51,633 bases of DNA from Clytia hemisphaerica (lineage: Eukaryota). This document shows positions 4,195 through 49,091 of this stretch, piece after piece. A model generated the notes under the pieces. The model was given only the letters and a program-made list of their open reading frames with translations. It did no database searches and was not told where the DNA came from. The stretch spans positions 354,032 through 405,664 of the forward strand of contig NW_027104315.1 of NCBI RefSeq assembly GCF_902728285.1, read 5' to 3'. The position numbers and the translations under genes are program-made. The number at the start of each line of letters is the position of its first letter. Positions within the stretch are counted from its first letter, which is position 1.

Positions 4195-4963
4195 GTTCGT
4201 ATATAATACCATTTAAGGACTCTGGCCATAGTCGGAAAATTGATTTTAGTATTTGAACATAAAAGTTATGTTTTAGGTTCTTTAACACTTTTAACAAAGA
4301 ATTGCCTTTATAAATTGCTTTTTAATCAAATCCCTTAAGAGTAACTAAGAAATTTTTGAATCAACAAATTGTTGTTAGGTTTGTACAGGTTGCTTATTTA
4401 TGGCGATGATTCGTGAGAAATTTGTTTAGTAGGAGCTCTTTTGGTGCATTGATGAAGCCCTAGCTGTTAGCACTTTAAATTCGAGAGTTCCGTCAAATTC
4501 GAACAAAGTTTCTTTTTTATCATTCTGATATAACTCATGAAAGCATAATCCGTATAAAAAACCCGGTCTGGAAGCCTTTTGTTTCTTTCCATTGTTTCTT
4601 AATTGAACTTGCGTTGAGAAATTAGTTTGTTTTGCTCACTTTTTGATCATGTGATTAAATCTTAAACCAATCCCAAGGGGAATACTTGGTAACGTGATCA
4701 AATACTGAGCAAATCGATTTTTATCTTTTGATATTAACAAAGAAAAAAACTAACAAAAAGTTAAAACAATAAGCTTCTCCAGACCAGGGTTTTTTATACC
4801 GGCTATGATGAAGGTCACGCTTGTTACGATTTTCCAGTAAAAACAAAAGCAGGCAAGTTGCTCTGGAGACGAGATTGCATCCCCATTTAAACGATTAGGG
4901 TTTGTCAAGCTTGATAACGTCGTTAAAAGCCTTCTCTTTTTTGATTCCCCTAAATTGAAATAG

Positions 4964-7688: not shown

Positions 7689-8430
7689 CAGGGATATGTT
7701 ATAGCGGAGCTGGATGAAGGACGAGAATTCCTTAGCGGATTGCTTCTTTGTCTTTTCTATTGTAAACTGTTGATAATAGAAATCCATCTCTGTCCCCTTG
7801 AGTGTTCTGTTTTTTTAAGAAAAATGAAGCAGACAAAGTATTCATGCAGTACGTTTGCACATATTTTGCTATGATGTTCCCACTTTTCATTAAAATAATA
7901 TTTGTAGAAGATACCCCAAAAGCTTCCTTGTAAATGAAATCTATTTTTATCAGCGTGTGTTATGAATTTGAGAAGATTCATGATTTCTCTTTAAAAATTT
8001 CGGATGTAAATATTTTGAAAATATGTTTCAATTTTTTGAAATTTTTTCCATAATAAGACCTACCGACTTGCTATCTGAAAATATCAGTTAGAAAGTGAGG
8101 CACCCCGCGGTGTAGCGCGGTATTTCAAATGAAAAAGTACTATTTATAATCTTAGAGAAGAAACTTCTTATAACTTTACCAATGAAAACAATGTTTTTCA
8201 TTTTTTTAAATTGTCATTCACCAATGTTTTACAGACCCTCTTGATAACTAAAAGTTTTTAATCGTGAACGATAAATGCAGAAGCAGAATCATTGGCTAAG
8301 AGGAAATCCAAATTTCACGAGTTTGTAATTAAAAAAGTTAAATTTCATATCAAATTTTAATGTTAGGGACAGAGATAGAGCAAGGCTTTTTTAAATGTGC
8401 GTTATCCAGCTCCGCTATAAGATATCCCTG
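7689..8430. mobile_element. ~740-bp non-autonomous DNA transposon with ~28-bp TIRs (CAGGGATATGTTATAGCGGAGCTGGATG), copy A
   Basis: Terminal inverted repeats; near-identical copy at 11152-11887; short flanking direct repeats (CTAAAT). Confidence 0.85.
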
Positions 8431-10508: not shown

Positions 10509-10517
10509 GTAAGCTTT

Positions 10518-10615
10518 CCCAGCTGGCACACAACATTGTTTCAACGTTTATTTAACGTTCACAACGTCCATATAAAGTTAGATGAACGTTAAAACAACGT
10601 TGTGTGCCAGCTGGG
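10518..10615. mobile_element. ~100-bp palindromic AACGTT-rich MITE ('CCCAGCTGGCACACAACGTTG…CAACGTTGTGTGCCAGCTGGG'), copy 1, starting ~10 bp after exon-5 donor
   Basis: Near-perfect internal palindrome; same consensus recurs at 25555-25652, 27758-27855, 31491-31587, 36062-36156, 37206-37292, 39175-39266, 40815-40911; degenerate or partial copies at ~10195-10290, ~26740-26930, 27443-27500. Confidence 0.85.
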
Positions 10616-10624
10616 TTTTACATC

Positions 10625-11117: not shown

Positions 11118-11151
11118 GGTCACAAACTTTTTTACTTTACACAGGGATATG

Positions 11152-11887
11152 TTATAGCGGAGCTGGATGAAGGACGAGAATTCCTTAGCGGATTGCTTCT
11201 TTGTCTTTTCTATTGTAAACTGTTGATAATAGAAATCCATCTCTGTCCCCTTGAGTGTTCTGTTTTTTTAAGAAAAATGAAGCAGACAAAGTATTCATGC
11301 AGTACGTTTGCACATATTTTGCTATGATGTTCCCACTTTTCATCAAAATAATATTTGTAGAAGATACCCCAAAAGCTTCCTTGTAAATGAAATCTATTTT
11401 TATCAGCGTGTGTTATGAATTTGAGAAGATTTCATGATTTCTCTTTAAAAATTTCGGATGTAAATATTTTGACAAATATTGTTTCAATTGACTTGAAATT
11501 TTTTCCATAATCAGACATACCGACTTGCTATCTGAAAATATCAGTTAGAAAGTGAGGCACCCCGCGGTGTAGCGCGGTATTTCAAATGAAAAAGTACTAT
11601 TTATAATCTTAGAGAAGAAACTTCTTATAACTTTACCAATGAAAACAATGTTTTTCATTTTTTTAAATTGTCATTCACCAATGTTTTACAGACCCTCTTG
11701 ATAATTAAAAGTTTTTAATCGTGAACGATAAATGCAGAAGCAGAATCATTGGCTAAGAGGAAATCCAAATTTCACGAGTTTGTAATTAAAAAAGTTAAAT
11801 TTCATATCAAATTTTAATGTTAGCGACAGAGATAGAGCAAGGCTTTTTTAAATGTGCGTTATCCAGCTCCGCTATAAGATATCCCTG
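11152..11887. mobile_element. ~740-bp TIR element, copy B (near-identical to 7689-8430)
   Basis: Near-identity over the full length implies recent transposition. Confidence 0.85.
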
Positions 11888-15706: not shown

Positions 15707-16628
15707 TTGAAGCTTTAGAAATTAGTTGAAACGAGATTCATTGTTTCTGACATCAGTGTAAGAAAATATTTCGACAAAAAGAGCCCTGTAAACTTGGCAA
15801 CCCTTCGTCAAATAATAAGATTTTTCGATCAATGTTTTTTTAAAGTGAACTCTATTGCTTGATACTTTCCTCCAAAATACTCCAGCCACTTAATGGCTAC
15901 AAATTGAGTCTGAAAGTGCGTGTGCTTATAAAGAACTTTTCATTTTTTGGCTTGAGAAAATATCTTTTCAAAACAAAATTGAACGGATAACGAAATGGAA
16001 CGTAAACTTGTGTCGTGGACGAAGTCTATATATTAATACGCTTAAACGTGTGTGTTTACAACGTTCTGTAAAAAGTGTTCGAAATTATAACAAAGCTCTA
16101 CAAAGCCTCTTCTTCACGGCGTTGAACCATCGTCTCTTTGCACCCCACGCAGTTTTCCTACCACTAGACTAACTTTGAGACGCCAGTATACTATTTTCTT
16201 TACAGCAACATTGGAGCTGGATGGGTTAAAATCAACCTTCTTCACAAATATATTTTTTGCTTTAGAAGATTCCTAATTCAGATGATCTTTAAAACTTTCT
16301 GTTTACTATAGCGGCTCCCTATCACTTTCAAAACTTTTCAAAGTCTTACAAAGTCACTCTCGAATGTCCAGCCACGATGGCTAGCCACGATGGCTAAAAA
16401 GATCGAAAATATAATTCTTCTAAGCCAATTACTTAATTGTGATTAAAAATTGCAATGCAATGTTATCTTTTATCTATTTTTTTCATTAAATGAAAATCGT
16501 ATCACTATTTTGGCAGTTATATTTCTTCCTACAGAGATTTTTTATATGTATAGTGATTCGCTGGATTGGGACACGCAGCGTGCGATGCTGCGCATACGGC
16601 TAGTTTTGTTTAATTTTCGAATATTAAC

Positions 16629-16892
16629 CCTTAGGAGGCGAAACACGTATATATACGTTTTGAAAAGGTCATTTTACCGATACACAGTCTTTTGGTCATA
16701 ACTGACCACTTCAGATTCAGACAAAAAAAATCTGCTATTTTTCGTAGCTGAGAGAAAGAGCTTTCTAGTGATACCAAAGTTGATACCTTAATCGTTTGTC
16801 CTGGTCGAGAAATTGCCTTTGAAAAAATAAATTTCCAGAAAAACATGATGAAATTTTTGGCCTTTTTCAAAAAAGTTAGCGGCTTTGAAAGG
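16629..16892. mobile_element. ~265-bp TTAA-flanked element (TTAA|CCCTTAGGAGG…GAAAGG|TTAA), piggyBac-like MITE, copy 1
   Basis: TTAA on both flanks, CCC…GG termini; second copy 17015-17282 is ~97% identical and 120 bp downstream. Confidence 0.6.
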
Positions 16893-17014
16893 TTAATAAA
16901 AATTTTTTAAATCTTTAAAACTGGCCCAAACTGTCCAAAATGACTATTGGTACTAAGAGAAAGTAGATAAAGGCATTTTAAATGAAAAATGAAAAATCAT
17001 TGAGTCCATGTTAA

Positions 17015-17282
17015 CCCTTAGGAGGCGAAACACGTATATATACGTTTTGAAAAGGTCATTTTACCGATACACAGTCTTTTGGTCATAACTCCTGACCACG
17101 TCAGATTCAGACAAAAAAAATCTCCTATTTTTCGTAGCTGAGAGAAAGAGCTTTCCAATGATACCAAAGTTAATACCTTAATCGTTTGTCCTGGTCGAGA
17201 AATTGCCTTTGAAAAAATAAATTTCCAGAAGAAAATGATGAAATTTTTGGCCTTTTTCAAAAAAGTTAGCGGCTTTGAAAGG
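17015..17282. mobile_element. ~265-bp TTAA-flanked piggyBac-like MITE, copy 2
   Basis: As above. Confidence 0.6.
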
Positions 17283-17723
17283 TTAAGAGGCTACAATGTT
17301 CAATACTGATAATTAAAACGTTCTGAGCAAACTTGAGTTCTACAAAAAAGGCGAGCTTAGAATTCCTTTTGATACATTTTGTAAAAGAAATCAATAGACT
17401 TTAACGACCAATTACCGACACATTCAACTCCTGTTTTTCTTTATACCTCCATGTGTTAATGTGCTAAATTTTTATTGATATCAATCTATATGATGATCAA
17501 TCTATACACTAATACTTCGAACAAACGCCCTCTTCTTTTAAACTCCCCCTCAAATAAAATTCTCCTTCAAATAAACGCCTCCCTTCTAAAATTGGTGTTT
17601 ATTTGAAACAATTAAACACCCTTCCCCCCTCGAATAAACGCACTATCTAAAATCCAAAAAAATTAATAAACGCCCGCGCCGCGTTTATTCCAAGTATACG
17701 GTATACATTTTTTTCCATTTTAG

Positions 17724-23329: not shown

Positions 23330-23830
23330 ATTTTAATTTTCTACGATATTTTATTACCCAACCAAAACTTTTACCCGATTTTTTTATACCCGACCAAAAC
23401 TTTTACCTGATTTTTTCCCCACCCAAAACTTAATAAGTCTTTAAAAAATCCAAATATTAACAAAGTTTTTACTTTATGAAGATGTCCCTCACTTCCAGGC
23501 ATTTTTGTCAGAAAGAAAAGATAATAGTTTGTAGCGGTAATTTAATGTTGTAATAAAACTATTGAAACAAATGAGTATTACTAAAAATCTTGATAATTCC
23601 CTCTTATGCTCTATATTTGTCAGGAACATTTAAAAAATTTGGTTGGGGAAAAGTGACGAATTTGAAATTTCGGTCGGTGAAAAGTGACGAATTTGAATTT
23701 TCGGTCGGTGAAAAGTGACGAATGTGAAATTTCGGTCGGTAAAAAGTGACTAATTTGAAATTTTGGTCGGGAAAAGTGACGAATTTGAAATTTTGGTCAG
23801 GGGAAAGTGACAAAAATGCCTCTAGGTGAC
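23330..23830. repeat. Foldback-like structure: ~30-bp tandem subrepeats (ACCCGACCAAAACTTTTACC x3) at 23330-23440 and inverted ~38-bp tandem subrepeats (GGTCGGTGAAAAGTGACGAATTTGAAATTTC x5) at 23640-23825
   Basis: The tandem arrays share the CGACCAAAA/TTTTGGTCG core in opposite orientation. Confidence 0.55.
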
Positions 23831-25540: not shown

Positions 25541-25554
25541 GTTAGGAGATTCTT

Positions 25555-25652
25555 CCCAGCTGGCGCACAGCGTTGTTTCAATGTTAATCTAACGTTCACA
25601 ACGTCCATTTAACGTTAGATTAACGTTTAAACAACGTTGTGTGCCAGCTGGG
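25555..25652. mobile_element. AACGTT-rich palindromic MITE copy, ~14 bp after exon-15 donor
   Basis: Sequence identity to the other copies. Confidence 0.85.
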
Positions 25653-27170
25653 TTTCTACTGAATGATAATGTACAGATATCACATATACAAATGCAGTTG
25701 ACACTTTCTAATTCGTTTTTTAGGGTAACTTTTCATCGAATAAGTACTGTGAAAAGTTAAGGTCGAAATCATATATCGACGCTGTGCCGACCAATCCAGA
25801 TTATATTCAGCGCGCAATCAACGCAGAGAAAAGTAACCATAACTCTTATGGACATTAAATGGACGGCTTTAAGACCTATGGACGTCCTGGAAACATACAT
25901 TAGACGACCAAAAGACGTTTGTGCCCATCGGGATCGATGATTTCTTTGATATTCATCATCTTCTTGTTCGCCATCATCCTTTGACGTTTTTGTAAGGTCA
26001 TTGGTTGAAAAATGAAGCAATTCCACTGGTAGAAATTGACGTAACGGACGAAAAAAGCAGAACTTCCATCAATTCTTTTTTTGTTCGCGCGAAACTTTTT
26101 TATGACGTAATCTTTTGTTCAGGCAAAAAAAGGTTAAGAAAAAAACTGTCGCCCATTTCGCATGAACGTGGAGTCCGGCCTTAAGAAGTACCCTGAGTAT
26201 TAGAGGGTTAATTTTTCAAAAAATATAATAACCTCTGAAGACAAATAATAGAAACTTCATCGCGCATGTGTCAATCTAATCACTGTACAAAAAATCAAAG
26301 ATGAAGAGCAAATATTACCATATTAATGTCTAGCAGACTGTATCAGTATGCAGTTTACTATTTACGAATTCCCCAGAAACCTCCAAGTGTAATTGAAATG
26401 AGTTTATTTCGAAAGAAATCTTCTACACGATTCCCAATTGTATAACAGTCATTACTAAACTATTAGTTATGGAAATGTCACTTTAATTGAATCGAAATAA
26501 TAGACATACTTTATGTTATGATTCTCTATCACTGACTCTTTTTACAAAGCATTGATGACTTTTTGTAAATTGTGTTTTCAACGACGGGAATAAAAATATC
26601 AACTTTGAACCTCATCCAAGATCTTGGATGGTCGTCATGGTTACTTTTGTCTTCGTTGATTGCGCGCTGAATAGAATCTCGATTCGTCGGCACATCGTCA
26701 ATATATGATTTTGACCTGTGCTATTCACGGTACTTAAGAAGTTGTTTCGACGTTAGTTATGAACATTAGATGAACGTTGCAGAAACATTGTGTACCAGCT
26801 AGACAAAAGACATGAACTTATGTCTTTTGTTACCCAGCTAGCGCATGACAGGGAAAAAAACGTTGCTTCAACGTTCATCTAATGTTAGATGGACGTTATG
26901 AATGTTTGATAGACGTTGATATTAATTAACAATCTTAATTACACGCTTTTTGTATAAGAACAAACCAAAAACATAAGGTTTCGATGGCCAAAATCTTAAG
27001 AGCAAGTGAAGAACATTTTAAGGCTTTGTGGATTCTAAAACACCTGATTTCATAGGAAACTGGACCAAAATACTCACAAAATGGGGGAAATTAAGAACGC
27101 TGTTAAGAAAATATTTAGGCTAAAAACTCAAAAAATTAAGAACATCCAAATGCTTCTATAATCTTTATAG

Positions 27171-27442: not shown

Positions 27443-27855
27443 ATTTTCACAGGTCCATATAAAATTAGATAAACGTTAAAAAACGTCGTGTGCCAGCAGG
27501 GAAGAGGGACTTCTGACCATAGATTTATAAAGTCAAAAAGGCTAGATGTTCTACTTTAAGCTCTTCCAAACAAACAAAAAAGAAAGTGAATATCGCAAAA
27601 AATATTGCTGCTATTGTTTTCAAAAGACCCGCGAAGCTTCTTATTGGTCAAGCACTGAAATTCTATTGTGATGCCACGCGACCTCGGCACACTTTTCAGC
27701 CAAAACATGACATCTACCTAGAACTTTGGACTTGAATCTATGGTCAGAAGTCCCTCTTCCCTGCTGGCACACGACGTTTTTTCAACGTTTATCTAACTTT
27801 ATATTGATCTGTGAACATTAGATAAACGTTGAAACAACATTGCGCGCCAGTTGGG
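27443..27855. mobile_element. Composite: half MITE (27443-27500), a second TIR element with 27-bp TIRs GGGAAGAGGGACTTCTGACCATAGATT (27500-27762), then a full AACGTT MITE (27758-27855)
   Basis: Nested inverted repeats seen directly in the sequence. Confidence 0.7.
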
Positions 27856-28331: not shown

Positions 28332-28468
28332 ATGATCCACCAGTGCTGGTAAAAGTGGCTTTCAACGGATTGTGTGACATTCGTCAAAAGGACTGCGTTC
28401 GAACACGTGTCATTGGTAGAAACTTCATCAATTCTGAAAGTTTAGCTTGTCAAACAAAGGCTCTCAAG
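28332..28468 (+). CDS. Exon (DDPPVLVKVAFNGLCDIRQKDCVRTRVIGRNFINSESLACQTKALK)
   Basis: Acceptor ttttatag|AT, donor AAG|gtatgt; phase 1 in, 0 out. Confidence 0.6.
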
Positions 28469-30114
28469 GTATGTTTTAAACGATACTATCGTCTACACAT
28501 TATCACTAAAAAAAGGAATAATTCAGGAGGCGGGATAAATTTGAAGACGGAGTTCAGTTCGGGAGAGTGAACAGTTGCGGAGGTGTTTACAGTTGTTTCA
28601 AAACTCTACCGCCATTATTTTTCCCGTAAACCGCCCTGACGCCCTGACTGCGCATTTATACTTTCCTGTGCTTACTGACCCTTTAAACGGACGATAGCAT
28701 CGTCTAGGTGTGTTTCAATTCAACTAAAAGTCTATTGCTTGAAAAAGTAGGAGTCTCTATAACTACTAGCCGTCCCGGCGTCGTCCGAGACGACTTCTTA
28801 CTCCTTTTAATACGCTCGCTTCGCTCGCTTTTCTATTTTTCAGAAACTTGTAGGGATTTGTATACAAATGTACTTATTTTGCGAGAAGAAATGTTCTTAA
28901 ATTTAGGCCTTTTTCGTAAAAATTGATGTTTAAAATTTTTAAGGGGACACTAAAATTAATGCACATTAAAAAATATGGTGAAAGTATTTTTAGTTGAATT
29001 TTGATTTTTCTTCTCCTTATTAAATTGTTTAAATTTGTCATAATTTCTTTTGTTGAAAACCTTCAAACAATAATGTTCTTGACTCGCTAAAAATAATGCT
29101 CATGCAAATATTGGTGAAAATTGAGTTAAAAATTTCTCGCGAGAAATCGGTCATACTTTAAACGTGCTTTTTTTTGGGTTTTTGGAAGAGGAAAGACTAT
29201 TATTTTCCTCACGCAAGGATGAAGATAAAAAACAAATAGAAATTCAAATTCAGTATTAGAGGTACTTGGCAACACCGATCACTCCAAAGACCACAGTGCT
29301 TTACGGTGGAATATAAAGAGTGCCTTTTTTCAATACCTCTTAACAGAGTCAACAATTATTTAACAATTAAACTCAATGCGTAAGTAAAAGCGTTTTCATT
29401 TTGCTATCTCAATAGAACAAAAAATAGCAAACATTGATTAAAAAAATTTCATAATTGAATTGGGAATAAGTCATCAACTTTTCTCATATTGTCAAGTCCA
29501 TTAAATTGAAATGTTTTTATCAGAGTATCAAATAGACGGGAAATGTCATCGGAGCTTTATTAATCTCAAGGGTAATCATAAATATGATGTCTTTTTGAAA
29601 ACTCAAATTTTATCTTCGACGTATTCCCATGCGAATCAAAATTATTTCATAACCGACATAAACTTTTTTTTTAAAAACTATAAATTATGCTGATAGTGCT
29701 ATTGCACAGTCAGTTGTGTTTCTCCATCAAGGAGAAATGTGCTCTCTTGAATGGAAGTGCACTTGGCGAATAGAATTGAATATACAATCAAAAAGGCGCG
29801 AAAAAAATTGCCGTGTATTTAAAAATCGCTAGCGAAAAAGCCTCATGCGAGAATGGGAGAGTTCCGATTTAAGCGTATTATAATATAGATAATAACACAC
29901 ACCAGGAACAAAGATTTGTCCGAGTTTAAAGGAAATTTCATTTCAGTTCAGTTACCAGAAAACTTGTTCGAGTTAAAAAAACATTCGAGTTATAGAGATT
30001 CGAGTTTGTATTTCACATGGTATTGCTTCGGACCTAAATGACATTAACAGTAGATTAATCAATATAAGAGATACAACCCTCAAACTAAACACTGTTGTTA
30101 AAAACAGAAGCTTT

Positions 30115-30355
30115 TTGTGGGTCTTTCTCAGGAGACCCCAGCCAGCTACGATGACAGAGGTCGTGGGTTCAATCGCTTATCAATTCATATCAAAGTTTCA
30201 AAAATGTTCCTTGATAGTTCTCAATTTAATAAGAGAAATATTAAGGATAAGTGAGGAAATCCAGAAAAAAAATGACGCACTCCCCCTGCCTTTAGGTGGA
30301 TAGCTGGAAAGAGGAGCCTTTGGGCCACCTCCGGCTGCGTCCGCAAGACTTTCTT
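30115..30355 (+). mobile_element. SINE copy (divergent head, conserved core and tail)
   Basis: Core and tail align with 24296-24575. Confidence 0.6.
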
Positions 30356-30790
30356 ACTACTTGGTTATCTTATCACACCCCCTTGTCACAGACAGGATTT
30401 CTTCATCCAGTTGGTATAAGAATAACGAAATGAAACTCGATGGGGATTGATTTTCTCATATTGTTTTAGCTGGGGATGTCAATTCTTTTGTTTTCAAGTC
30501 AGAAAATTCAATGAGAATGGGGAAAATATCATAATATTTTGCAGTGAGGATTGGTTTATTTGATTATTTTCTGTGGGGACGAAAGTTGGAGTATTATTTT
30601 CCATCGGGAACGATATTTTGGCCAATTTTTCCAGTGGGAAGGGGTCCCAGTGGGTTTATGAGAAGGAGGTGCCTTATCTTGTTATGATGATTCTTCTTGG
30701 TTGTTATAGTTCACTACTGACCATTCTATCGATGAAGAATTCAACGGAGAAGCAACAATTCAAAGCAGTGAATTATTAAGTTTCGCCGAG

Positions 30791-30982
30791 TTGAGTTGCG
30801 ATCTACCTGATGTTCCAGTCGATATTGTTTTTTCGTCAACGCAAAAAGGAATTCCAGTTGGGGGTTTTGATATCCGATTGTCAAACAATGGGGAAAATTT
30901 CTCGAATGAGAGTTCACAATTTGTGGTGTATGATTCCAAATGTTTACAATGTAATGCCACTACTAAAGATTGTCAGTGGAAG
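30791..30982 (+). CDS. Exon, IPT/TIG-like segment (LSCDLPDVPVDIVFSSTQKGIPVGGFDIRLSNNGENFSNESSQFVVYDSKCLQCNATTKDCQWK)
   Basis: Open frame and donor AAG|gtatga; the acceptor (cgccgag|TTG) is weak and chosen for phase; exons may be missing between 28468 and here. Confidence 0.45.
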
Positions 30983-31490
30983 GTATGATACACTTTTTTT
31001 CAGGCTCAGTATTGTTCTTAAATTATTTGGTGATTTTGAGCCTCATTGTTCTTATAAAATTGTTTTCATATAAAAAAGTGTATGTTTTTTTATAAGAACG
31101 AAGTATATAAGAACTATATAGTCGATGTAATGTGTTTGTTGAACAACCGTAGAGCAAATTCAATAAAGTTATATACATCTGATGATTGCATAAGTAGCAT
31201 GAAACTTTTAGTAATGTATTTTACATGGTAATTTTTGAAATATAACTTTATAGTCGATGTAGTAATGAAAAATGAGTCGGTATTTCGTTCTCACAAAATC
31301 GATTCCAACGCATTCAATATTTGTCAAAAACACCTTGGGAGCCTACTAGAATGGTTCTAAAAGTCTTAAAAATCTTCCTTTGATTGTTATAGAAACTCAT
31401 GTACAGAAGTGACTAAGTCTGAATATCAGTTGGAAAATTCAACAGATCTTCAAAATTTGTGACCCCGCACGCTTCTGCCTTCAATATCAT

Positions 31491-31587
31491 CCCAGCTGAC
31501 CCGCAACGTTGTTTCAACATTAATCTAATGTTCACAACGTCCATATAGCATTAGATGAACGTTGAAACAACGTCGTGTGCCAGCTGG
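31491..31587. mobile_element. AACGTT-rich palindromic MITE copy, ~50 bp upstream of exon-19 acceptor
   Basis: Sequence identity. Confidence 0.85.
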
Positions 31588-31639
31588 GTATATGGTGTAA
31601 AATTAGAAATGAGTTAACTTCATCATCATCGAATTTTAG

Positions 31640-31745
31640 GAAGACTCCTGCCGAGTGAACAATTATTGTTTTGGCAAAGGAGATGCACATCCATTGGATT
31701 GGTGCAAAGTCTGTAGTGGAGAAAATGCTTTTGAACCAAGATATG
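31640..31745 (+). CDS. Exon, PSI-like Cys-rich segment (EDSCRVNNYCFGKGDAHPLDWCKVCSGENAFEPRY)
   Basis: Acceptor gaattttag|GAAG, donor TATG|gtaaga; C..NNC…WC..C spacing resembles plexin/semaphorin PSI. Confidence 0.55.
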
Positions 31746-32159
31746 GTAAGAGAATTTATATTTGGTTGTGTATCATTTAAAATGCATGGGGACAATGTTT
31801 AGTTTTCTAATGTACCTGACATACGAGAAAATAAGAGACGAGCACCCCGATCTAGAATATGTCTTTCCGTAGAAACCTTCCCAAGACTCGCATCAGTGCA
31901 GTTCGGGGGCTCACTACAGGGCTCAAAACACTATAAACATTTGTAGAGAGCAGAGAGAGAGAAGAAGCCGGGCCTGACAGAGTCTCTTTAGAGCGCTCTA
32001 GAAACTGAATTCACGCTCAGCGCTATATCTATCCACAATTAAGTGTTTCGTCCTTCCTTTTTTCCATTTTTACTATTTGGTTGAGTCGCGAGAGGGTTAG
32101 AGGCCCATTTGAACAACTATAGACGCTTTCAGCACCTTGAACTGGATACCCAATACCCC

Positions 32160-32290
32160 TTACATGGCATGGGTTGACCCAGGCGGAGGTTCATTCACTT
32201 ACCAGGTGAACCGCTGCGAGTGGGAATCGAACCTCAGTCGCCTGTGTAGCAACCAAGGTCAATGACCACTATACCACAGCACCTTCCTAA
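32160..32290 (-). pseudogene. tRNA-like segment (minus strand '…GGTATAGTGGTCATTGACCTTGG…GAGGTTCGATTCCCACTCGCAGC…'), probably a SINE head or tRNA pseudogene
   Basis: GGTTCGATTCC T-loop-like box and D-loop-like AGTGGT; no clean cloverleaf could be folded by eye. Confidence 0.3.
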
Positions 32291-32576
32291 TCAGATTCTT
32301 AAGAATCTCTAATCAACCAAGATTAGAAGCTTACAATGCATGAAAAACGTATACAGTATTTCATTCACATCCAATGATTGGCTGTAAGGCGTGAAGCAGA
32401 CTATAATGTTTTAGATTTTTTTTTTTTAATATAATTTTTAATTTGATAATCTTATACAGTACATTTTCTCACTCGTCAGGCATGCATGCATGTGTGAAGT
32501 TCGGTATAGGGCGTTACAGTCCTGTCAACTGCCTTTGCCCATTGAGGATCCAACTATTATAAAAAAAAATGATTAA

Positions 32577-33757
32577 GGGAGTGGTCAGAAAGTATCTACT
32601 AGGGGGGTGGAGGATTCTAGGGGGGGGTTCCAAAAATTTTTCGAGGGTTTAGGGGGGGGGGTTCCAAATCTTTTGGGCAACTCAAGAGAAAATGTAGGAA
32701 GTCTAATTTCATAGTTTTACGCTTCAAGATTTCAAAAATTTATTTTATTTGATATATGTACATGTCATACTAACATTATTTGGGCATCATCGCCTTGCCC
32801 TTTTGGTTTGTAGCATTGAGCTAAATGAGGGAAGCAGATTAGTGGCTTTCACAGCTCATCAGAGTGGTTTGAAAAAGTACTTTTCAGAAAGAAATTTGTC
32901 AAAACAAAGTGTCTTTTAGCTAAAATGGTAGTGAAAAACATCGAAATTTTCTCCCGTCGGCGCAAACCATGGTTGTGCCTCCTTAGTCTCTACTAATATC
33001 TTATAAATTATATACACAGAGCTTTGACAGACCCTGGAAAACCTGAAAATATAGGTTTTTCAAAAATAGAAATTTCAAACTCAGAGAATTTTATTTATCA
33101 GACTCCTTTTAACAACAGAATAGCTTATATTTTAGGGTCTCGAGTACCTGATCTTCAAAATTTTCTCCCTTCGGGGCCAACCATGGTGGCCCCTCAGGAT
33201 ATTTTGAGTAATTGAGTAATGCTTCTGTAATGTAGGGAGATTATGTATCAGGGAAAATAAGCCGTAATTTTCTCCCAAAACTTTGGGAAACTCAGAGAAA
33301 ATAACTCGTTGATTCTTATTTTAACCCTGGACTATTCCTATAGGAGATCTACCATTTTGATTGACGTTTACACCACGGGTTTTTTTCTTTTGTTTACTTC
33401 AGAGAAATTCCGTCGTAACCATGGAAATCGACGGAAAAAATCCCGTGGTGTAAACGTCAATCAAAATGGTAGATCTCCTAAAGGACTATACTCAACTTTA
33501 CAGGGCTAAACTATCTCCCTTACCTAATTTTGACTTAAAAACTGTCATACAAACAAATAATACTCTTTGTACCGCATCTGTATGAATTCTTTTTTTGCGT
33601 AAAAATTTTTCTAGTGGGGGGGGTGCGAAAAAATATTGGGCCTTATGAGGGGGGGTTCGAAATTTTTTTCCAGGCTAGGGGAGGGGGTGTGAAAGTATTT
33701 TGGGATTTTTCAAAATATCCTCCACTCCCCCCTAGTAGATACTTTCTGACCACTCCC
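32577..33757. mobile_element. ~1.18-kb non-autonomous DNA transposon with perfect 31-bp TIRs GGGAGTGGTCAGAAAGTATCTACTAGGGGGG, TAA/TTAA flanks; contains a ~140-bp hairpin MITE at ~33345-33485 and G-rich subrepeats
   Basis: TIRs and internal palindrome seen directly; solo TIR-like fragment at ~23103-23140. Confidence 0.8.
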
Positions 33758-34242
33758 TAATGTCGAAATTTCAAATAATCATCAAAAACAGCGAGCCAAC
33801 TTTTCTTTTGACACTTACCTTCTTTACACGTAAAAATACCAGAAAATGCAAATGTGTTCATCAAAACTCGTTACAGAATTTAAAAATATGGTAAAAAAAG
33901 CTATTCCCATGTGGAATAATATTTTTCGAATAGCTGAAAAAAAATATAGAAATCTAAAAAAGAAGTTTTGATATTATGTGTGTGCTATGTGAGAAAACTT
34001 TTGAAAAAATAAATCACCATTCCTCGACTACATGGTTGCTCAAAGAATTTGGGTCTGCATCGAGTTGGCTTGTGTTGGAAATGTTCATGACTTCCAAATA
34101 AGATGGAGAAACTGTTGGCAAAATACAAATAAGAAAAAAAACAAAATGAAATTTAAGAAGATTAAGAATCACTCTCGCTTGGAAATGAAGTCAACAGTTA
34201 CAATTACCAGCATAATACCTTTCTTTCTCTTGCCTATTTCAG

Positions 34243-34449
34243 ACAACTTGGCACCTGTGTTTCGACCAACTGAACCTATCAAAGTTTTTAAAGACCAAGA
34301 AATGAGCTTCGTTATCCCCGTATTTGATCCTGAACAGAAGAGGATGAAATATGAGTTGATAGAACCACCATCACCACCACTGGGTATGGAGATCTCCAAT
34401 GGTGGAGTACTGACATGGACACCCAAGGAAGAAAACAAAACGTTCACAG
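34243..34449 (+). CDS. Exon, dystroglycan-type cadherin-like (CADG/He_PIG-like) domain (DNLAPVFRPTEPIKVFKDQEMSFVIPVFDPEQKRMKYELIEPPSPPLGMEISNGGVLTWTPKEENKTFTG)
   Basis: Motifs 'F.IP..FDPE…Y.L…P.G+.I.NG.L.W.P'; acceptor ctatttcag|AC, donor CAG|gtaacc; the phase-1 G from exon 19 completes a GAC codon exactly. Confidence 0.65.
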
Positions 34450-34775
34450 GTAACCTTCAGTGTGCCAAATAGGTCCTTTTTACGCAGGACCTTATGACGG
34501 TTTTCCGTCTCTGTTTGGTACAAAAAGAGACTTTATCATCTCCAAATTCAACAAAAATTTTCATTGCCAAGTTCATTAACATCTTGAGACAAAAAACTTT
34601 GACCATTGAATTAAATGTCTTAAAGCCAACAGTAACATTATTTTACTTCCCAAAACCAGCGAGTTTATTTCAAGCAATATTCTTTAACATTAAATGATAA
34701 TATACTTGACTCATCTGAAAAGTTATATGGACCTCATTTACAAATCCTAACTAAAATTTCCTCTTTTTTTCCCAG

Positions 34776-34957
34776 TATGGATCAAAGTTACTGACATTTG
34801 TGGCAACAGTTCGTATTCTACATATGATTTTGAGGTTGTTAATTGTCCTTGTCAAGCTTTCAATGGTGCAGAATGCCAAAGAGGTGATAATGGAACTATT
34901 AGCTGTGTTTGCCTGCTGGATGTACCGGAAAAAAGTCGAAAAAAGCTTGCACTATAG
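34776..34957 (+). CDS. Exon: end of cadherin-like domain plus Cys-rich EGF-like segment carrying RGD (VWIKVTDICGNSSYSTYDFEVVNCPCQAFNGAECQRGDNGTISCVCLLD…); stop at 34955-57 if unspliced, or donor at 34922 (GAT|gtaccg)
   Basis: Acceptor tttttttcccag|TA; phase-consistent with exon 20; the 3' boundary is unresolved. Confidence 0.5.
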
Positions 34958-36061
34958 TTTGCTCTTAATAACTCGAAAGTAAAAGTTATGTTTTGCTTAG
35001 TTGAATGGACCTATCAGAGTTTTCTTGATTTTTTCTAAAACAGCGATGCATTGTGGGATTGTTTCAGGAGTATTACAATAAATCTCTTAGAATTCCTCGA
35101 GGAATTCATTATACCCCGGAAACAATCCCACAATGCATTACCGTTAAAGAAAATCAAAATACCCGAACTGATTTCTTTTTTCACTGAAGATTAAGCTTTT
35201 GAGTATGAAAAACTGAAACGTTTTTTAATCAAACTAGTGGAACTGTTAAATTTTTATATTCACGGCACCTGTCTGCAAGGGTAACCCTGCTTACAAAGAC
35301 TTACAGTCAACTCTCTCTAATTCGAACCTCTATTATTCGAATTTTTCTGTAATTCGAACTAAAATTGGTCTCTAAAGCTGTAAAGTGGTTTAAATTACTC
35401 TCTATTATTAGAATCTTTCTCTAATTCGATCAAAGTTTTTGATCCCTTGAAGATCGATTTAGAGAGAATCAACTGTACTTATAAAGTCAAAAATTCTTCA
35501 ACTATTAGCTTTGTGCGAAAAACTTCTCTTTACACACCACCGTGCCACAGATCCGGTGGACCCCCAGCCTCACATGTAAATAATACCCTAGGATTTAAAC
35601 CCCACTGGATAATTAAAGTATGATTTATCCCCATTCGAAATTGGGCGGCAAAAACTACACTCCAAAACCAAAACCACCCCCGTTTTTCTTTTTGAGCTAG
35701 AAACAATGATTTTCTGTCCCCTTTCGGACTTTCATCCCCACAGAGAGAAAAAAATCCTTTAGCAAAAATTGCCTTGACTTTGATTTTTTTTTATTTACTA
35801 AGGTCACCCACTCAACTAAGCTACTTTGAAATAATTAATAAAGAATAAAATATGATCTACAAATTTAAAATACCCGTAAAGAAACGTAATGGACAAGTAA
35901 GTAGCTTGACAAAATGATATGTAATCTTGATATCTCAATCTCTTTACTTTTCCAGTTGTTCCATTGGCGAAGAGTGTAAACAAAAAAGTAAGGAAAAACT
36001 GTCTTTTTGATTTTCTAAAAGTCCATTTTGGCTTAAAGTTTAGTTAAAATAATTTGGTAGT

Positions 36062-36156
36062 CCAGTTGGCAACGACGTTGTTTCAACGTCTATCTAACGT
36101 TATATAGACGTTATGAACATTAGATAAACGTTGAAACAACGTTGTGTGTCAGCTGG
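36062..36156. mobile_element. AACGTT-rich palindromic MITE copy
   Basis: Sequence identity. Confidence 0.8.
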
Positions 36157-36418
36157 TAGGCCACTCTTAGACCATGTTCAGACGTTACGGTTTCGTTTCG
36201 CTCCGGTTTGGTATTTGTTACGGATAGAAAGTGTTCATACTCATTTCGGAACATTTTGGAACAACAAAACGGAGCAGTTCTGTTCCGATGAAAATAGTAG
36301 AGCAAAACTGTTTCTAACTGTTTTGCTTTGTAACGTCTTCTTTTTTGACGTTTTCAATTTTGACGTTCAAGGAACGAATCGTCCATACAGGATTCGAAGC
36401 TAATCAATTCCTATTTAA

Positions 36419-37125
36419 GGGCTCTGACCATAGTCCAAAAATAGATTTTGGTATTTGAACATAAAAGTTATATTTCAGGTTCCTTAACACTTTTAACAAA
36501 GAATTGCCTTTATAAATTGCTTTTTAATCGAATCCCTTAAGAGTAATTAAGAATTTAATTGCAAAAATGACGTTATGAACTTTAAAAAGATGTTAATAAT
36601 ATGTTGCATCACCCTCTTTTACAAAAAGTGCTTAGTTTTAATGGGTAAATAACTTTTTTGTTTCAAAATTTCTTTACACTGTCCGCAAAGAATTGAACTA
36701 TTTCAAATTTTGCGGAAAATTTTTCTAAAAGAGTGTCAAAAGTTATGACTGTTTTTTTAAGCAAAATCCAGATGAAAAATTATGAAAAACCACTAATTTG
36801 AAGATTTCGAGACAAAGAGCATTACCAAAAATTTTCCGCAAAAATTTTTATTGTTCGGTAAAAGATACACCATCTACTGCGAAATTTCTTTCAAAATGTT
36901 TTTTCTTCGCCGAAACTAAGCTCTTCAAAGTTGAAATACTCTTCCTCGTAAAAGTCTTCATTTTCTTCTTCATCAAATTTTCTCAATGCAATTTTTAAAT
37001 TTTTAGATTCAGGAATAGTTTGTCTAACAGAAAATGTATAACATGCCATAGTTTTGTTAGTTACGTCAGTCAGAAAAGACATTTTAAACACGGCAATTAT
37101 GAAAAATTCACTATGGTCAGAGCCC
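36419..37125. mobile_element. 707-bp TTAA-flanked element with 15-bp TIRs GGGCTCTGACCATAG
   Basis: TTAA TSD at 36415-18 and 37126-29; partial 5' copy at 4217-~4350, only ~22 bp after the exon-1 donor. Confidence 0.75.
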
Positions 37126-37205
37126 TTAAGTTGTGCAGATCACCTGTTTCTTATGTTGGTTGGCTTAAATGTAATTTTGACCACCAGAATTCGCCCAAAA
37201 ATACC

Positions 37206-37292
37206 CCCAGCTGACACACAACGTTGTTTCAACGTTTTTCTAACATTCACAACGTCCATATAACGTTAAATGAACGTTGTGTGCCAGCTGGG
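37206..37292. mobile_element. AACGTT-rich palindromic MITE copy
   Basis: Sequence identity. Confidence 0.8.
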
Positions 37293-38772
37293 TAGTGTTA
37301 AATTCAAACTGTCATCCGAAATGTTATCTGGCACCCGATGTAGAAATTTTCTTCCGACACGCTAAAGCTCTGAAGGTCGGGAAAATTTTCAACATCTGGA
37401 AGAAATACATTACGGAATTTCGCCTGACCGCGTAATTTTTTAGAAAAATGGGCCCGAGTGCAATTTGGATAGGGAAGGTGTCATGGCCGACAAAATTTCG
37501 GTCAGAAAAAACTTCCAAAGGTTTCACGAAATAAATTCAAATACAAAACTTTTGGAGAAGGAATCATGCAAAATATTATCATTCTTTTCACAAGGAGGGC
37601 GGAGAATACTCAAATAAGTATTTTCCTTCTTAAACTGATCACAGACAAAAAAAATGAATAACATTGTACACAAAAAAGCCTGAAAGAAGAGAAAAGTCAT
37701 AATCAGCATCTATAATAACACTAAAAGAAAAACTAAAGCTATAGAAAATGAATACTAACCCTCAATGAAGACTTTTGTGAAGTTTAATAAAGATTTTATC
37801 CAAAAAACTTCAGTTCTGGAAAACTGAAGTCGGTTTGTCGGTTTGTCGGTTGTCGGCCGGTGGACAACAGTTATATTTGGAGGACGGTCTAAGATAGATA
37901 ACAACATGAAAGTTACTGATAAAAGCCTAAGCCCATAGGAACATACCTGCTTTAGTTTCTTTGGTCTTTGAATGGTATAAAATTTGAGAAAGTGCAGAAA
38001 AAATCAGCCATCAAAACAAACAAAAACAAAAGTTTGATTATCAACTTTTCTGTGGTAGAAACACATTTTTTGGGTTGGTGCACATACAGAAATTACACTG
38101 GATACTAAAACTAATATTCAGGGAGTGATAAGTACAGTTAAACTACAAAAAAATCCATCAAAAGAAACCAAAAACAACCATAACAGCACACATTTTTTGA
38201 AAATTACATCAGCCATGTTGTTTGTAATTTTTGCCGACATACTCATGACGTGGTAACTAACGACAGTGATTTGACGGTCTTTTTGAGGCGCCAGATCTCA
38301 AAAAAACAATTTTTGAGCGTTCAGCACGGCCCCGAAAATGAGGGCTAAACTTATGTCGGCACATCAATGGATGACTACTATTTCTCTCCGATGGTATATT
38401 GGACCGCTCCTTTAGAGCTTTAGCGTGGGCGGCCGCCAATACGCCATCGGAATATCAGATAATCCGAAATGTGGTGAACATTTTGAAGATTCCTCTCTAG
38501 TCTTCGGCTAGATTATCACATTTGATCTTACCCCCTAAGGACCTAAGGTGTTTAAGCGAATATCGGACAGAGATAGAGGTGCATGAGTTTTTTTATTTAT
38601 CAATGAAAAAATTTCAAAATTTCAAAAAGAGAATCAGTGGATTGGAATTTTCCTTGAAAGGAAAAATGTGAAAAAAGAATTCACACATCCCCTACGGTGT
38701 TTAGGTTCTGCAAATACTGGATGGATAGAAATGCATAAGTTTTAACATTTTCAATATTTCAACTTTCAATAG

Positions 38773-39162
38773 CATCTCCAATGAAACTCAACTGCTATCA
38801 AAACAAAATGGAAATTGGTTTAGAATTCGATCACCTATCACGTCACTCCTTACCTTATATCGTCAAATTTCATGGTGATAATAACTGCCCAACATTAAAT
38901 GCATCTTCAGCATCTTCAATATACGATGGACGTCTATGGATGAATGCAAATTACAGTGAATGTGGTATCAAAGCTTTTGAGAGCGGAAACAAACTAGTGT
39001 TCAAACAAATCGTTGAAGTTGTGTACGGAAAACAAATGAAATCTTTAGATGTTTATCGACATTTTATTGATACTTATAACGCTTCTTGTTCGATTGATAG
39101 AAATGTTACACATAAATTAAACATCGATGTTAAAGAACAGGAGACTCTCGACGATGAAACAG
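38773..39162 (+). CDS. Exon, ZP-N domain (…LNCYQNKMEIGLEFDHL…GDNNCPTLNASSASSIYDGRLWMNANYSECGIKAFESGNKLVFKQIVEVVYGKQMKSLDVYRHFIDTYNASCSID…)
   Basis: Matches uromodulin ZP-N 'ECGANDMKVSLGKCQL…DSRCSGF…W…GPCGT…Y.N.L…I.R…I.F.CSY'; acceptor ttcaatag|CA, donor ACAG|gtaggc; enters in phase 1, so an upstream exon is required. Confidence 0.8.
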
Positions 39163-39174
39163 GTAGGCACTTTA

Positions 39175-39266
39175 CCTGTAGCACACAACGTTGTTTTAAC
39201 GTCCATCTAATGTTTACAACGTCCATATAACGTTAGATGAATACAACAACGTCGGGCGCCATCCGG
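39175..39266. mobile_element. AACGTT-rich MITE copy (degenerate TIRs), 13 bp after the ZP-N exon donor
   Basis: Sequence identity; flanked by a duplicated 'GAAACAGGTAGG(C/T)ACTTTAC' segment. Confidence 0.75.
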
Positions 39267-40034
39267 GTTTCTATACTTGTGATGCATATTTATTTTTAAT
39301 GTATGTTTTTATGAGGCCCTCCAAGCGGTTTTCTTGATGTCGTACTAGAGACTTTCTTCTGGCGAGGAAACAGGTAGGTACTTTACAGGGGGGTTTCATG
39401 GTTGACGGAGGAGTGGAATCGGCCCTTTTTCGAACGGAGTGGCGGAATTTGACGAAAATTTTGACGGAATTTCGGAAATTGAATCTGCTGACGGAGATGG
39501 AAAATTAGACAATTTTAGTGTGGAAAAACGGAATTTAGCAAATGTTTTTGCAGTTTTTCGGAATTATGGCTAAAGATATTTGAATCACGCAGAATTTTTT
39601 ACAAAGAAAGCTTGAACTTCAAAGGAATCTTTGATGGTGGAGTTCTTATTTTCACCCTGAAAATTGTAAAAAATCACCAAAAGTCGTCCCTTTCCAGATA
39701 CACATCTTGAAAATTAGTAAAATTTGGGACCCTACCAGATATCTTCAGAGCCTAAAAAAGGGATCCTGACTAGCAACATATCCCCCCGTACCCAATTATG
39801 CTTACCTTTTCTGAAGGTGAATGGTAAAATACGATGGCTTTTTTACGGAAAAACTTAATGAAGAACTAACTCGGCAAAAAGTACTCTAGGGGTTCACGAC
39901 TTGGCGAAAATAAAGTTGATTCAATAATACAGTGGGACTTCCAATTTGCGGACACCACGGGGAAAAGGGTGGTTAGTGTCTGCTATAGTGTCCACTAATA
40001 AGTACATATTTCAAACTTTTTTTTTATTCAACAG

Positions 40035-40233
40035 AGGAGAACGCCGATTTCAAATTCAAATTTAGTGCTTTCAAAGACGATAAAACAGCGATCAGTGGTT
40101 TGGTCTTTCTTGGAGATTTAATCCATTTCGAATTGGAGTTACTTTCCAACTCTAAAGTTGTGAAAACGTCTCCTCAAGATTGTTTTGCTACGCGTTTGGA
40201 TGGAACAGGACGCTACGATCTTATTAAAGATAG
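40035..40233 (+). CDS. Exon, ZP-C domain start (EENADFKFKFSAFKDDKTAISGLVFLGDLIHFELELLSNSKVVKTSPQDCFATRLDGTGRYDLIKD)
   Basis: Acceptor attcaacag|AG, donor ATAG|gtaaac; resembles uromodulin 'F.V.MALFQ…L..[22 protein letters not shown]'. Confidence 0.8.
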
Positions 40234-40814
40234 GTAAACATATATTTATTGTATAGTCAAAAACGTCGCAAAAACCTTTCTTTTGGGATGAGATTTAAGT
40301 AATAAAATTTCAAATTAATTTCTCAAAAAATTGTGTGAAGAAAATCTCCATGAAGAAAAACAACAACAATAGGTAGAAAAGGTAGCTAAGAAATGCTATG
40401 TTCAGTTTCAAAACCTTCGCGAGTGTTTTGCCTTAATTTCTTTTTTAGCGGAAACCTTTACCAACTTTAATAACCTTAAAATCATTTAGACGATGCTATA
40501 GTCTGTTAAAGGGATAGTTTATCGGCGGTAAAATGTATATGTGTGGAGTTTTCAACCGTAATGTCAGTATACGGAAAAATTGGCGATAGAGTTTTGAAAA
40601 AATGTCAAGCTCTACCGGCTGTAAACTATTTTCGCCGCAAAAAAATATCTGTTTGCTTTGGCTTTGGTTTTATTTCTTAGTTAGTGATTTGAAATCATTC
40701 AATACACCTTTTCTAACGTAGCCGCCAATTGCCACGTGAGCATTGTTTTGTCCGTTTTACCACCCTAAAACCGTTCCAGTCTTTTTTTCGCACCTATAAG
40801 ACAATAGAAAAAAA

Positions 40815-40911
40815 CCAGCTGGCACACAACGTTGTTTAAACGTTAATCTAACGTTCACAACGTCCATTTAACGTTAGATTAACGTTAAAACAACGTTGTA
40901 TGCCAGCTGGG
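40815..40911. mobile_element. AACGTT-rich palindromic MITE copy, ~125 bp upstream of the ZP-C exon acceptor
   Basis: Sequence identity. Confidence 0.85.
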
Positions 40912-41035
40912 AAGTGTAAAAAAAAGGATTAGATCGAGTTTAGGGTCGTAAATCAAATAATAAAGTGGCAAGTGTCTGACCGCGCGACTACGGTCGAAGA
41001 GGTGTATTGGCCAAATATTCTTATCATTTTTTTAG

Positions 41036-41328
41036 ATGTGTAGGTGATGATGAAACACTCGCGATCACATCGTCCAATCAACAAACACACATGTTCTCGT
41101 GGGAAATGGAAGCTTTCAGATATTTTGGAAATTCTGACGGTATTGTAATCACCTGTCGAGTTTTGGTTTGTCGAAATAATCCTTTTGATCAACTGACAGA
41201 TGAATGTAAGAGATGTGGACAAACTACCGTCAGACGAAAACGAAGAAATGATGAAGATGAAGAGGAGAAAGATGTTTTGAGCGAAACTTCGCTGAAGAGT
41301 GATCCCATTTTCCTTGTTGAAAGACCAG
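41036..41328 (+). CDS. Exon, ZP-C end plus consensus furin cleavage site and external hydrophobic patch (RCVGDDETLAITSSNQQTHMFSWEMEAFRYFGNSDGIVITCRVLVCRNNPFDQLTDECKRCGQTTVRRKRRNDEDEEEKDVLSETSLKSDPIFLVERP)
   Basis: 'IKD|RC' spans the splice exactly as in uromodulin 'IQDRCP'; RRKRR followed by a hydrophobic stretch; acceptor ttttttag|AT, donor CAG|gtatag (an alternative 6 bp later keeps the same phase). Confidence 0.85.
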
Positions 41329-41649
41329 GTATAGGTATGTCGCTCTCTCTCTCATTATTTCTCTTCTTACATGTTGTAAATTGTCGATTTGAGTGATACT
41401 TCATTTCCTGTATTAAGTTTCCACTGACTTTTCTGAGATTTTTCCGCTAAATAATGTTTTCAAGGCAGTTGTTGCACTCATAATGATTTATGAAAAGGCC
41501 CAATGTCATTATTAAATCTGTCATAATTTAAATACGTACTATGTACTTATCGTGCCTTTTACTGATGCATATTTCGTGACTGTTCCCCAGCTCCCGGACT
41601 ATAACTTTAGTCAACTCTGATGTTATTGTTTTATTTATTCTACACAAAG

Positions 41650-41813
41650 GCCTTGCCAAAGTATCTGGCGATGAAGCAGGTCTCGATCACACTGAAAAGA
41701 TGGCAATCATTGTCGTTTGTGGTGTTGTTGCTTTGGTTCTTTGTGTTGCCATCGTCAAAAAGTTTTTCTTCAAACCTCAAAGTGGAATGCCAGAAAAACC
41801 TGTTGTTGGATAA
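41650..41813 (+). CDS. Terminal exon: transmembrane helix plus short cytoplasmic tail (GLAKVSGDEAGLDHTEKMAIIVVCGVVALVLCVAIVKKFFFKPQSGMPEKPVVG*)
   Basis: Acceptor cacaaag|GC completes a GGC codon from the previous exon; 19-aa hydrophobic segment then KK stop-transfer; TAA at 41811-13. The ORF-track frame over this region (MLLFYLF…) is the wrong frame. Confidence 0.8.
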
Positions 41814-48316: not shown

Positions 48317-49091
48317 GTAAGAATAATTGCAAATAGCACAAATAAAACATATCGAGCACAATCAAGTTTCCCACTTGTATTTGATTTGATTTTGGGAGTA
48401 GGCTTTGTAACATATTTAAACTTTTAACTTGGCTCAACTTTATAACTTTTATGGTAATCTCATAAAAACATGCATTCTGCGTTTTATTTCCCATCTGCAT
48501 CCTGTATTTGATTCAATTTTAAGTTTGAGGAATTTCAGCCCTAAAGGAGCTGGAAGACAGACTTTGTAACCAATTTAAACTTTTAACTTGGCTCACGAAC
48601 TTTGTAATTTTTGTGGTAATCTGCATTTACCATTTACCGTTCTGCGCATGTCACGCTTCGCTGTAGCGTAGACAGAGGTGAAGGCGAGAAGATTTAAGCG
48701 ACACAGTGATTATCTTTTTATACCACGAATAGATAAAGCTTTGTCATAAATATCTGCTCTCCTACGCAGATTGTTCTTCACCTCTGTCTAACTGAAAAAT
48801 GGCACTCAGGGTATCCACACTAGTAGCGTAGACAGGGGTGAAGGAACATTTGCTTAGGCATGGAAGAAGATTTAACGACACAGTAATTATGTTTTATGCC
48901 ACGAATAGGTAAGTGCTTTTTCGTAAAAATCTGCTCTCCTACGCAGATCTTTTTTCACCCCTGACTCTAAAGGGATGTGGCGAAATTTGATTACTTTTAG
49001 AGAGAATACATACCAGTAATCAGTGGTGTGGTTTACTTTTACGGCTATCATATGCCACCCGTTCTTTAAATTTGCTTTCTTATTTTCATAG

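Follow-up and report, generated by a model that had tools for sequence, protein, structure and literature searches.

At one exon-intron boundary in Clytia hemisphaerica, the end of a coding exon and its splice donor recur within the following intron, on the far side of a MITE, which raises the questions of how the second copy arose and whether the spliceosome uses it. The original prediction, made from the 51,633-nt stretch of DNA analyzed here (hereafter, the window), placed the repeat at 39140-39380 and read it as a local duplication of the exon end and donor with a MITE in the first copy. Both strings that it quoted are present and the site is right, although the end at 39380 drops the last 6 nt of the second copy. 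The first copy, X, lies at 39141-39175 on the forward strand and comprises the last 22 nt of the exon, the donor at 39162|39163 (CAG|GTAGGC, phase 1) and 13 intron nt (-22 to +13), with the sequence GAGACTCTCGACGATGAAACAG|GTAGGCACTTTAC. The second copy, X', at 39348-39386 on the same strand, is a diverged version with a pseudo-donor at 39373|39374 (CAG|GTAGGT) and the sequence GAGACTTTCTTCTGGCGAGGAAACAG|GTAGGTACTTTAC. X and X' are 207 nt apart when measured on their 5' parts and 211 nt apart on their 3' parts, and the 172 nt between them are made up of ~94 nt of MITE and an 80-nt spacer.

Local alignment of the two copies gives identity at 31 of 35 positions (11% divergence over 35 sites) and a single 4-nt insertion (TTCT) in X'. 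Relative to X, X' carries 2-4 substitutions in addition to the insertion, and its exon-derived half has decayed. The alignment score of 39 lies far above that of shuffled sequences (16.7 ± 2.4, maximum 28, n=500), also when 300-nt flanks are included (39 versus 18.8 ± 2.3). The 20-mer around the donor, GAAACAGGTAGGYACTTTAC, occurs at exactly two sites in the 51.6 kb, even with three mismatches allowed, and at none in 100 shuffles. These results confirm that X and X' are a true local duplication at the DNA level, well above chance. Past ~39 nt, homology stays at shuffle level in either direction and on either strand: this holds for the exon upstream of X against the spacer upstream of X', for the spacer after the MITE against the sequence after X', and for the reverse strands. 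A tandem unit of 116 or 211 nt was rejected on the same grounds.

The host gene and its choice of donor

X sits at the 3' end of a ZP-N exon at 38773..39162 (forward strand; the 5' limit is approximate and was set from the AG at 38771-38772), which is read in the frame ...KLNCYQNK...NIDVKEQETLDDET, matches the proteins P0001 and P0006 at 100% and was also placed by tblastn of the wild transcript L004 onto the window. The acceptor at 40034|40035, which is joined to the authentic donor, opens the next exon and the start of ZP-C (40035..40233, forward strand), and a further exon follows at 41036-41334 on the same strand. When the joined exon model was compared with the protein collection, it proved 100% identical to a transcript-derived C. 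hemisphaerica protein, TCONS_00059241 (EukProt EP00111), which is P0001. The same cluster contains RefSeq XP_066930018.1 (P0006), XP_066930002.1 (P0007), a close paralogue or allele, and a metatranscriptome protein, P0008. L004, at 97% identity, maps by tblastn to exons from 28358 to 41810 on the forward strand, which makes the locus a large EGF/ZP gene of 10 exons or more that spans at least 28358-41810. At least five of its upstream exons are known from L004 (28358-28468, 30704-30982, 31640-31744, 34233-34448 and 34769-34912, forward strand). The EukProt and RefSeq models P0001 and P0006 look 5'-truncated, both starting at internal methionines, and the two are unlike near the C-terminus (KKVFFKSGMPEK versus KKFFFKPQSGMPEK).

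ZP-domain genes are recognized by a Pfam ZP-N/ZP-C match, conserved cysteines, a furin site and a C-terminal transmembrane segment. Here, PF00100 is matched at 48.4 bits against a cut-off of 24.6, Pfam detects the ZP-C domain, P0001 carries RRKRR and a hydrophobic tail, and homologues have PF00100/PF23344. The window is AT-rich eukaryotic DNA (GC 0.31-0.39) with no paralogous ZP exons elsewhere in it, and Rfam and tRNA scans of 38700-40100 returned nothing beyond one sub-threshold chance match. A literature search found no work specific to Clytia MITEs or to this gene.

To establish which donor is used, we compared four assembled or modeled sequences, drawn from EukProt, RefSeq and two wild metatranscriptome mRNAs. 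All four (P0001, P0006, P0008/L002-L003 and L004) join 39162 to 40035; the spliced junction reads ...GAAACAG|AGGAGAAC, and the protein reads ...QETLD(D/E)ET|EENADFKF. We infer from these four assembled or modeled transcripts that the upstream donor is used and that the downstream pseudo-site is silent. As had been predicted, the duplication does create a second consensus donor, CAG|GTAGGT, and reading past the authentic one adds the MITE to the exon: the read-through frame (ORF 38781..39230) terminates in ...RCFNVHLMFTTSI at a TAA inside the MITE (39228-39230, forward strand), and using the distal donor would place the MITE and this stop codon in the mRNA. The functional interest implied by that prediction found no counterpart in the data. 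The transcripts, which it had proposed to search for distal donor use, all splice from 39162 to 40035, and the protein collection holds no truncated, read-through or MITE-frame product. Candidate AGs at about 39316 and 39347, upstream of the X' donor, would delimit exons of 58 or 25 nt; by our own translation, either inclusion would shift the frame.

On paper, the distal GTAGGT gains one U1-pairing position over the authentic GTAGGC, as we reason from the conserved 5' end of U1, and the distal donor is slightly closer to consensus. The authentic donor is furthermore enclosed by a predicted 8-bp RNA hairpin (ACAGGUAG / UUACCUGU; 39159-39179, forward strand) of -10.1 kcal/mol (z = -2.9) that appears in both the MFE and the centroid structures, whereas the equivalent stretch at X' is predicted to be unstructured (-1.2 kcal/mol). 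The authentic donor is the one seen in transcripts despite the predicted hairpin and the better U1 pairing at the distal site. Half of the 3' arm of the hairpin is MITE-derived, four of its bases being the first bases of the MITE; this arm (UUAC|CUGU) resembles the 5' end of U1 snRNA.

Age of the intron and its neighboring elements

A view of the locus in a related species came from L001, a 1.3-kb ENA metagenome contig that carries the orthologous exon and was reached via the read-through ORF P0005. Its exon is 75% identical in protein and 78% identical in nucleotide sequence to the ZP-N exon and ends ...GACGATGGAATAG|GTGAGTGCCTTA, where an intron interrupts the same codon in the same phase; this makes the intron ancestral and marks X as the original boundary. 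X matches the exon end and donor of L001 (GACGATG..ATAG|GT, same phase), where X' instead has GGCGAGG and the insertion. X' is thus the derived copy, and the duplication is lineage-specific. The comparison with an orthologue, suggested at the outset, bore out a single-copy state elsewhere: the 523 nt of L001 intron contain neither the MITE nor a second copy and are otherwise unalignable to the intron in the window. A metagenome scan for genomic orthologues yielded the spliced transcripts L004 and L005 only. The copies also differ at a coding position (39155 versus 39366), where the exon in the window has GAT (Asp), and X' and the wild transcripts L002/L003 and L004 have GAG (Glu); at this site X' may retain an allele that is older than, or an alternative to, the one in the window.

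The intervening MITE belongs to a family that we defined by alignment of eight copies in the window, with 12 matches to the terminal-repeat pattern. Members are ~98 bp long, palindromic and AACGTT-rich, with the termini CCCAGCTGGCACACAACGTT...AACGTTGTGTGCCAGCTGGG. At least eight copies with CCCAGCTGG termini are present, at 10516-10618, 25553-25655, 27757-27855, 31489-31591, 36058-36160, 37204-37306, 39174-39267 and 40812-40914. At least four of these (31489, 36058, 37204 and 39174) lie within introns of the one EGF/ZP gene, and the copy at 40812 sits in the intron following. The copy at issue is a decayed, ~94-bp palindrome (39174/39176-39267, left limit ±2 nt, no strand assigned) that is strongly self-complementary and makes up ~11% of the host intron. 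Copies differ from the consensus by 4-15%, and this one, at 14% (92 sites), is among the two most diverged. It begins at the 3' edge of X and not inside it, so of the proposed arrangement the duplication of exon end and donor stands, and the placement of the MITE in the first copy does not.

Across the eight copies with both ends, the MITE is flanked by matches of 2-3 bp (TTT/TTT, TAG/TAG, CTT/TTT and the like), and no other copy in the window is bracketed by long repeats. The TT(T)/TTT at 39174-39267 is the family's own short target duplication and fits an ordinary, separate transposase insertion. Between the right end of the MITE and X' lies the 80-nt spacer (39268-39347, no strand assigned), for which comparisons with the exon, the sequence after X', the MITE family and the rest of the window gave no match; the sequence on the other side of X', 39387-39560, likewise has no relatives within the window. 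Given these 80 unassigned nt, the structure can be read neither as a simple tandem duplication with a unit of 116 or 211 nt nor as a duplication interrupted by a single insertion.

When direct repeats no more than 600 nt apart were tallied, most proved to be tandem arrays and repeat families; the two strongest isolated pairs are X/X' and a pair at 4163-4201 / 4347-4385. The latter again involves an exon end: a C-type lectin exon at 4029-4194 (donor 4194|4195) that, when joined to 4964 onward, gives a full-length Lectin_C match in Pfam. No lectin homologue was found in the protein collection, and this junction therefore rests on Pfam colinearity only. The copies, 184 nt apart, each cover the last ~32 exon nt and 7 intron nt (AATAATTTTTTGAATCAACAAATTAGTACTAG|GTTCGTA versus AAGAAATTTTTGAATCAACAAATTGTTGTTAG|GTTTGTA), are identical at 32 of 39 positions and score 43 against 18.2 ± 2.3 in shuffles. 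Between them lies a 141-nt interspersed repeat (4211-4352), whose right end the downstream copy abuts with a 5-nt overlap, AAGAA; the other copy of the repeat, at 36413-36556, lacks the flanking exon end and donor. We found no terminal inverted repeats in 4211-4352, and the repeat is therefore not shown to be a MITE.

The 51 kb thus hold two independent cases with two unrelated elements, each with one copy abutting an element end, a hint that the process may recur. It nevertheless seems rather improbable to us that Clytia repeatedly acquires 35-40-bp duplications of the exon end and donor when small repeats insert a short way downstream of 5' splice sites. AGGT sites as a class are followed by such copies no more often than control 4-mers are, and part of the recurrence may reflect ascertainment, in that a copy anchored in a constrained exon stays recognizable longer than one with a drifting source. 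Were the pattern true, it would indicate that a specific mode of break repair or integration operates close to splice donors and supplies genes with extra donors from which alternative 5' sites, intron sliding or poison exons could arise; were it genome-wide, Clytia would offer natural duplicated-donor constructs for the study of 5' splice-site choice and of transposon-associated repair of exon-intron boundaries.

Origin of the second copy

That X' is a neutral local copy and a silent pseudo-donor seems to us very probable. For the process behind it, our leading account, which we rate as evenly balanced between right and wrong, is that error-prone break repair or replication template switching copied the exon-intron boundary at the DNA level and left X' as a neutral, silent 5' pseudo-site. 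The MITE would already have been in place when a break occurred in the intron about 80 nt downstream of it, and its repair would have drawn on a template a short way upstream, giving a 'templated insertion'. The copied stretch would have taken in the final 22 nt of the exon, the donor and 13 nt of intron, with synthesis stopping where the palindromic, hairpin-forming MITE begins; such a stop would explain why homology ends at the MITE edge. The spliceosome would since have kept to the first donor that it meets, with the distal donor idle or its products removed by nonsense-mediated decay via the TAA at 39228-39230, and X' would have drifted as a consequence.

Templated insertions arise by polymerase-theta end joining or microhomology-mediated break-induced replication and are recognized by a short patch identical to nearby sequence, homology confined to that patch and microhomology at the junction. 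X' is like them in being a short patch from within a few hundred bp, with confined homology, beside transposon ends where breaks are expected. It is unlike typical examples in that its 39 nt and its distance of about 210 nt are at the high end, such a patch from so far away marking the long end of templated repair events. The left junction of X' (…GTACTA|GAGACT versus …GAACAG|GAGACT) shows microhomology of at most 1 nt, and this hallmark of templated repair is therefore not demonstrable. We nonetheless favor templated repair, as it accounts for the confined homology, the 3' end at the MITE edge and the MITE's own short flanks. The second exon-end and donor copy beside a repeat end at 4347-4385 counts for this account, as do, by analogy, the silent downstream pseudo-sites of human F7 intron 7 described below. 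The divergence of the MITE (14%, 92 sites) is comparable to and indistinguishable from that of X/X' (11%, 35 sites), so these figures do not give the order of events.

Short tandem duplications are a common class of mutation, which counts in favor of a different order of events, to us a tentative possibility, in which replication slippage produced a 35-39-bp tandem duplication that was later split by insertion of the MITE and the 80-nt spacer at the junction between the copies. The MITE's short flanks are as expected of a later, separate insertion, and the lectin copies would be only ~9 nt apart, nearly tandem, once the repeat at 4211-4352 is taken away. An analogue is known in the F7 repeat (PMC1557585). 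Against this, two separate insertions, of the MITE and of the 80 nt, are needed at one junction point, the spacer has no counterpart among the repeats of the window, and by our own estimate each insertion has a ~4-10% chance of falling on the exact copy junction, as it must have done in both cases. The coincidence of boundaries would be explained at once if a ~173-bp fragment from another locus, already comprising the MITE and the 80 nt, had entered by capture at a staggered break, or by switching template twice (FoSTeS/MMBIR), with duplication of a ~35-bp target: X ends where the insert starts, and X' starts where it ends. The lectin case has the same architecture, its downstream copy abutting the repeat and the 5' neighbor of that copy being possibly repeat-derived, and the MITE is of similar age to X/X'. 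We consider such a capture unlikely: the left flank of the MITE, TT(T), matches the right one, as expected of its own transposition and not of a captured fragment; neither end of the insert bears a poly(A) or other hallmark of retroposition; the lectin copies (82%) look older than the copies of their repeat (90% pairwise); and we know of no DNA transposase that makes 35-bp target duplications.

X' could instead be functional, as a regulated alternative or decoy donor, as the 3' end of a poison pseudo-exon or as a back-up landing site for U1 given the MITE-created predicted hairpin. Its full consensus, CAG|GTAGGT, with the additional U1-complementary position that we reasoned above, the placing of the authentic donor in a predicted -10.1 kcal/mol stem while X' would be unstructured, and the AGs that could define 58- or 25-nt exons all lend this some appeal, but each mode of inclusion shifts the frame or hits a stop codon, X' is absent from all transcripts and proteins in the collections, its exon-derived half has decayed through the 4-nt insertion and substitutions, and the L001 orthologue has nothing comparable; function is very improbable on this evidence. 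Chance together with shared splice-site consensus, or an assembly artefact, is in our view extremely unlikely. Nine of the matching bases (CAG|GTAGGN) are indeed donor consensus, and the window has roughly 20 local direct repeats that score ≥28, but X/X' stands at a z of about 9 against shuffles, its 20-mer is without any other match at three mismatches, and identity extends past the consensus by 7 nt on one side and, upstream, by 16-22 nt; the copies also differ at several sites and have unique sequence between them, unlike a collapsed or duplicated assembly. Finally, direct repeats that bracket a MITE and both contain AG|GT could suggest a transposon signature, either a target-site duplication of the MITE or an introner or AGGT tandem duplication that created the intron, which we discount almost entirely. 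The original prediction rightly judged the repeat too long for a MITE target duplication: X' lies 80 nt beyond the right terminal repeat, and the repeats that flank family members measure 2-3 bp, none of the other copies in the window being bracketed by long ones. A transposon-generated intron was rejected because L001 has the intron, at the same codon and phase, without the MITE, and because the intron reaches its acceptor at 40034, ~770 nt beyond the MITE, and not an AG in X'; gain by AGGT tandem duplication was rejected because mRNAs continue with AGGAGAAC (40035 onward) and not with GTAGGTACTTTAC.

Comparable duplications and other repeats in the window

Internal duplications that span exon-intron boundaries, mostly contiguous and in tandem, were reportedly surveyed by Gao and Lynch in PNAS in 2009 and are said to yield new introns or alternative sites. 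X/X' is like those cases in being a short intragenic duplication with a splice site that has been tolerated, in each instance because the extra copy is lost when splicing proceeds from the outer site. It is unlike them in that its copies are non-contiguous and have produced no new intron or isoform.

The closest parallel is intron 7 of human F7, where the first unit of a 37-bp minisatellite spans the exon 7/IVS7 boundary (Borensztajn et al. 2006, PMC1557585). The downstream pseudo-sites of F7 are functional in principle and remain silent even when improved, the most upstream site being used (PMC1557585). The Clytia duplication shares with F7 a unit of ~35-39 bp that includes the exon end, the donor and the first intron bases, and it shares the use of the upstream site, with which a downstream site of better U1 complementarity does not compete. 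The head-to-tail arrangement of F7, in contrast, is lacking: the F7 units are strictly tandem, near-identical and polymorphic, whereas Clytia has two copies, 11% diverged, with the MITE and 80 nt between them. The silence of the F7 sites was established with minigene tests, and that of the Clytia site comes from assembled transcripts. As for introners and intron gain by AGGT duplication (PMC9860276; PMC4974935; PMC2891723), the likeness lies in an intronic transposon with AG|GT direct repeats on both sides; the differences are that the Clytia intron is ancestral, the MITE is ~11% of it, the acceptor lies outside the second repeat, and the repeat is not a target-site duplication.

X' is thus an ordinary intronic relic, a boundary-spanning duplication with a silent pseudo-donor, of a known kind. 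On its own it matters little, as a fossil of local intron repair. It offers a natural example in which the spliceosome favors the first of two near-identical donors despite the slightly better U1 pairing of the second, and it carries a warning for annotation, since a gene predictor could choose the distal GT and truncate the protein.

The window contains several further repeats. Two blocks of ~290-300 nt at 7689-8335 and 11142-11792, 3.45 kb apart, are 99-100% identical, which indicates a very recent segmental duplication. A 387-bp tandem duplication with 96% identity lies at 16621-16896 / 17008-17286, a diverged tandem duplication of ~160-178 bp at 48400-48966, and a 31-bp minisatellite of about 6 units at 23638-23822. 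Collinear blocks at 1022-1499 and 26206-26694, 25.2 kb apart and 78-94% identical, represent a dispersed repeat or an old segmental duplication. The motif GGCCCCCAAAACGGAGGT, probably a repeat family, occurs five times on both strands (2458-2475, 2642-2659, 2810-2827 and 3673-3708), and one of its copies is followed by a perfect donor-like GTGAGT.
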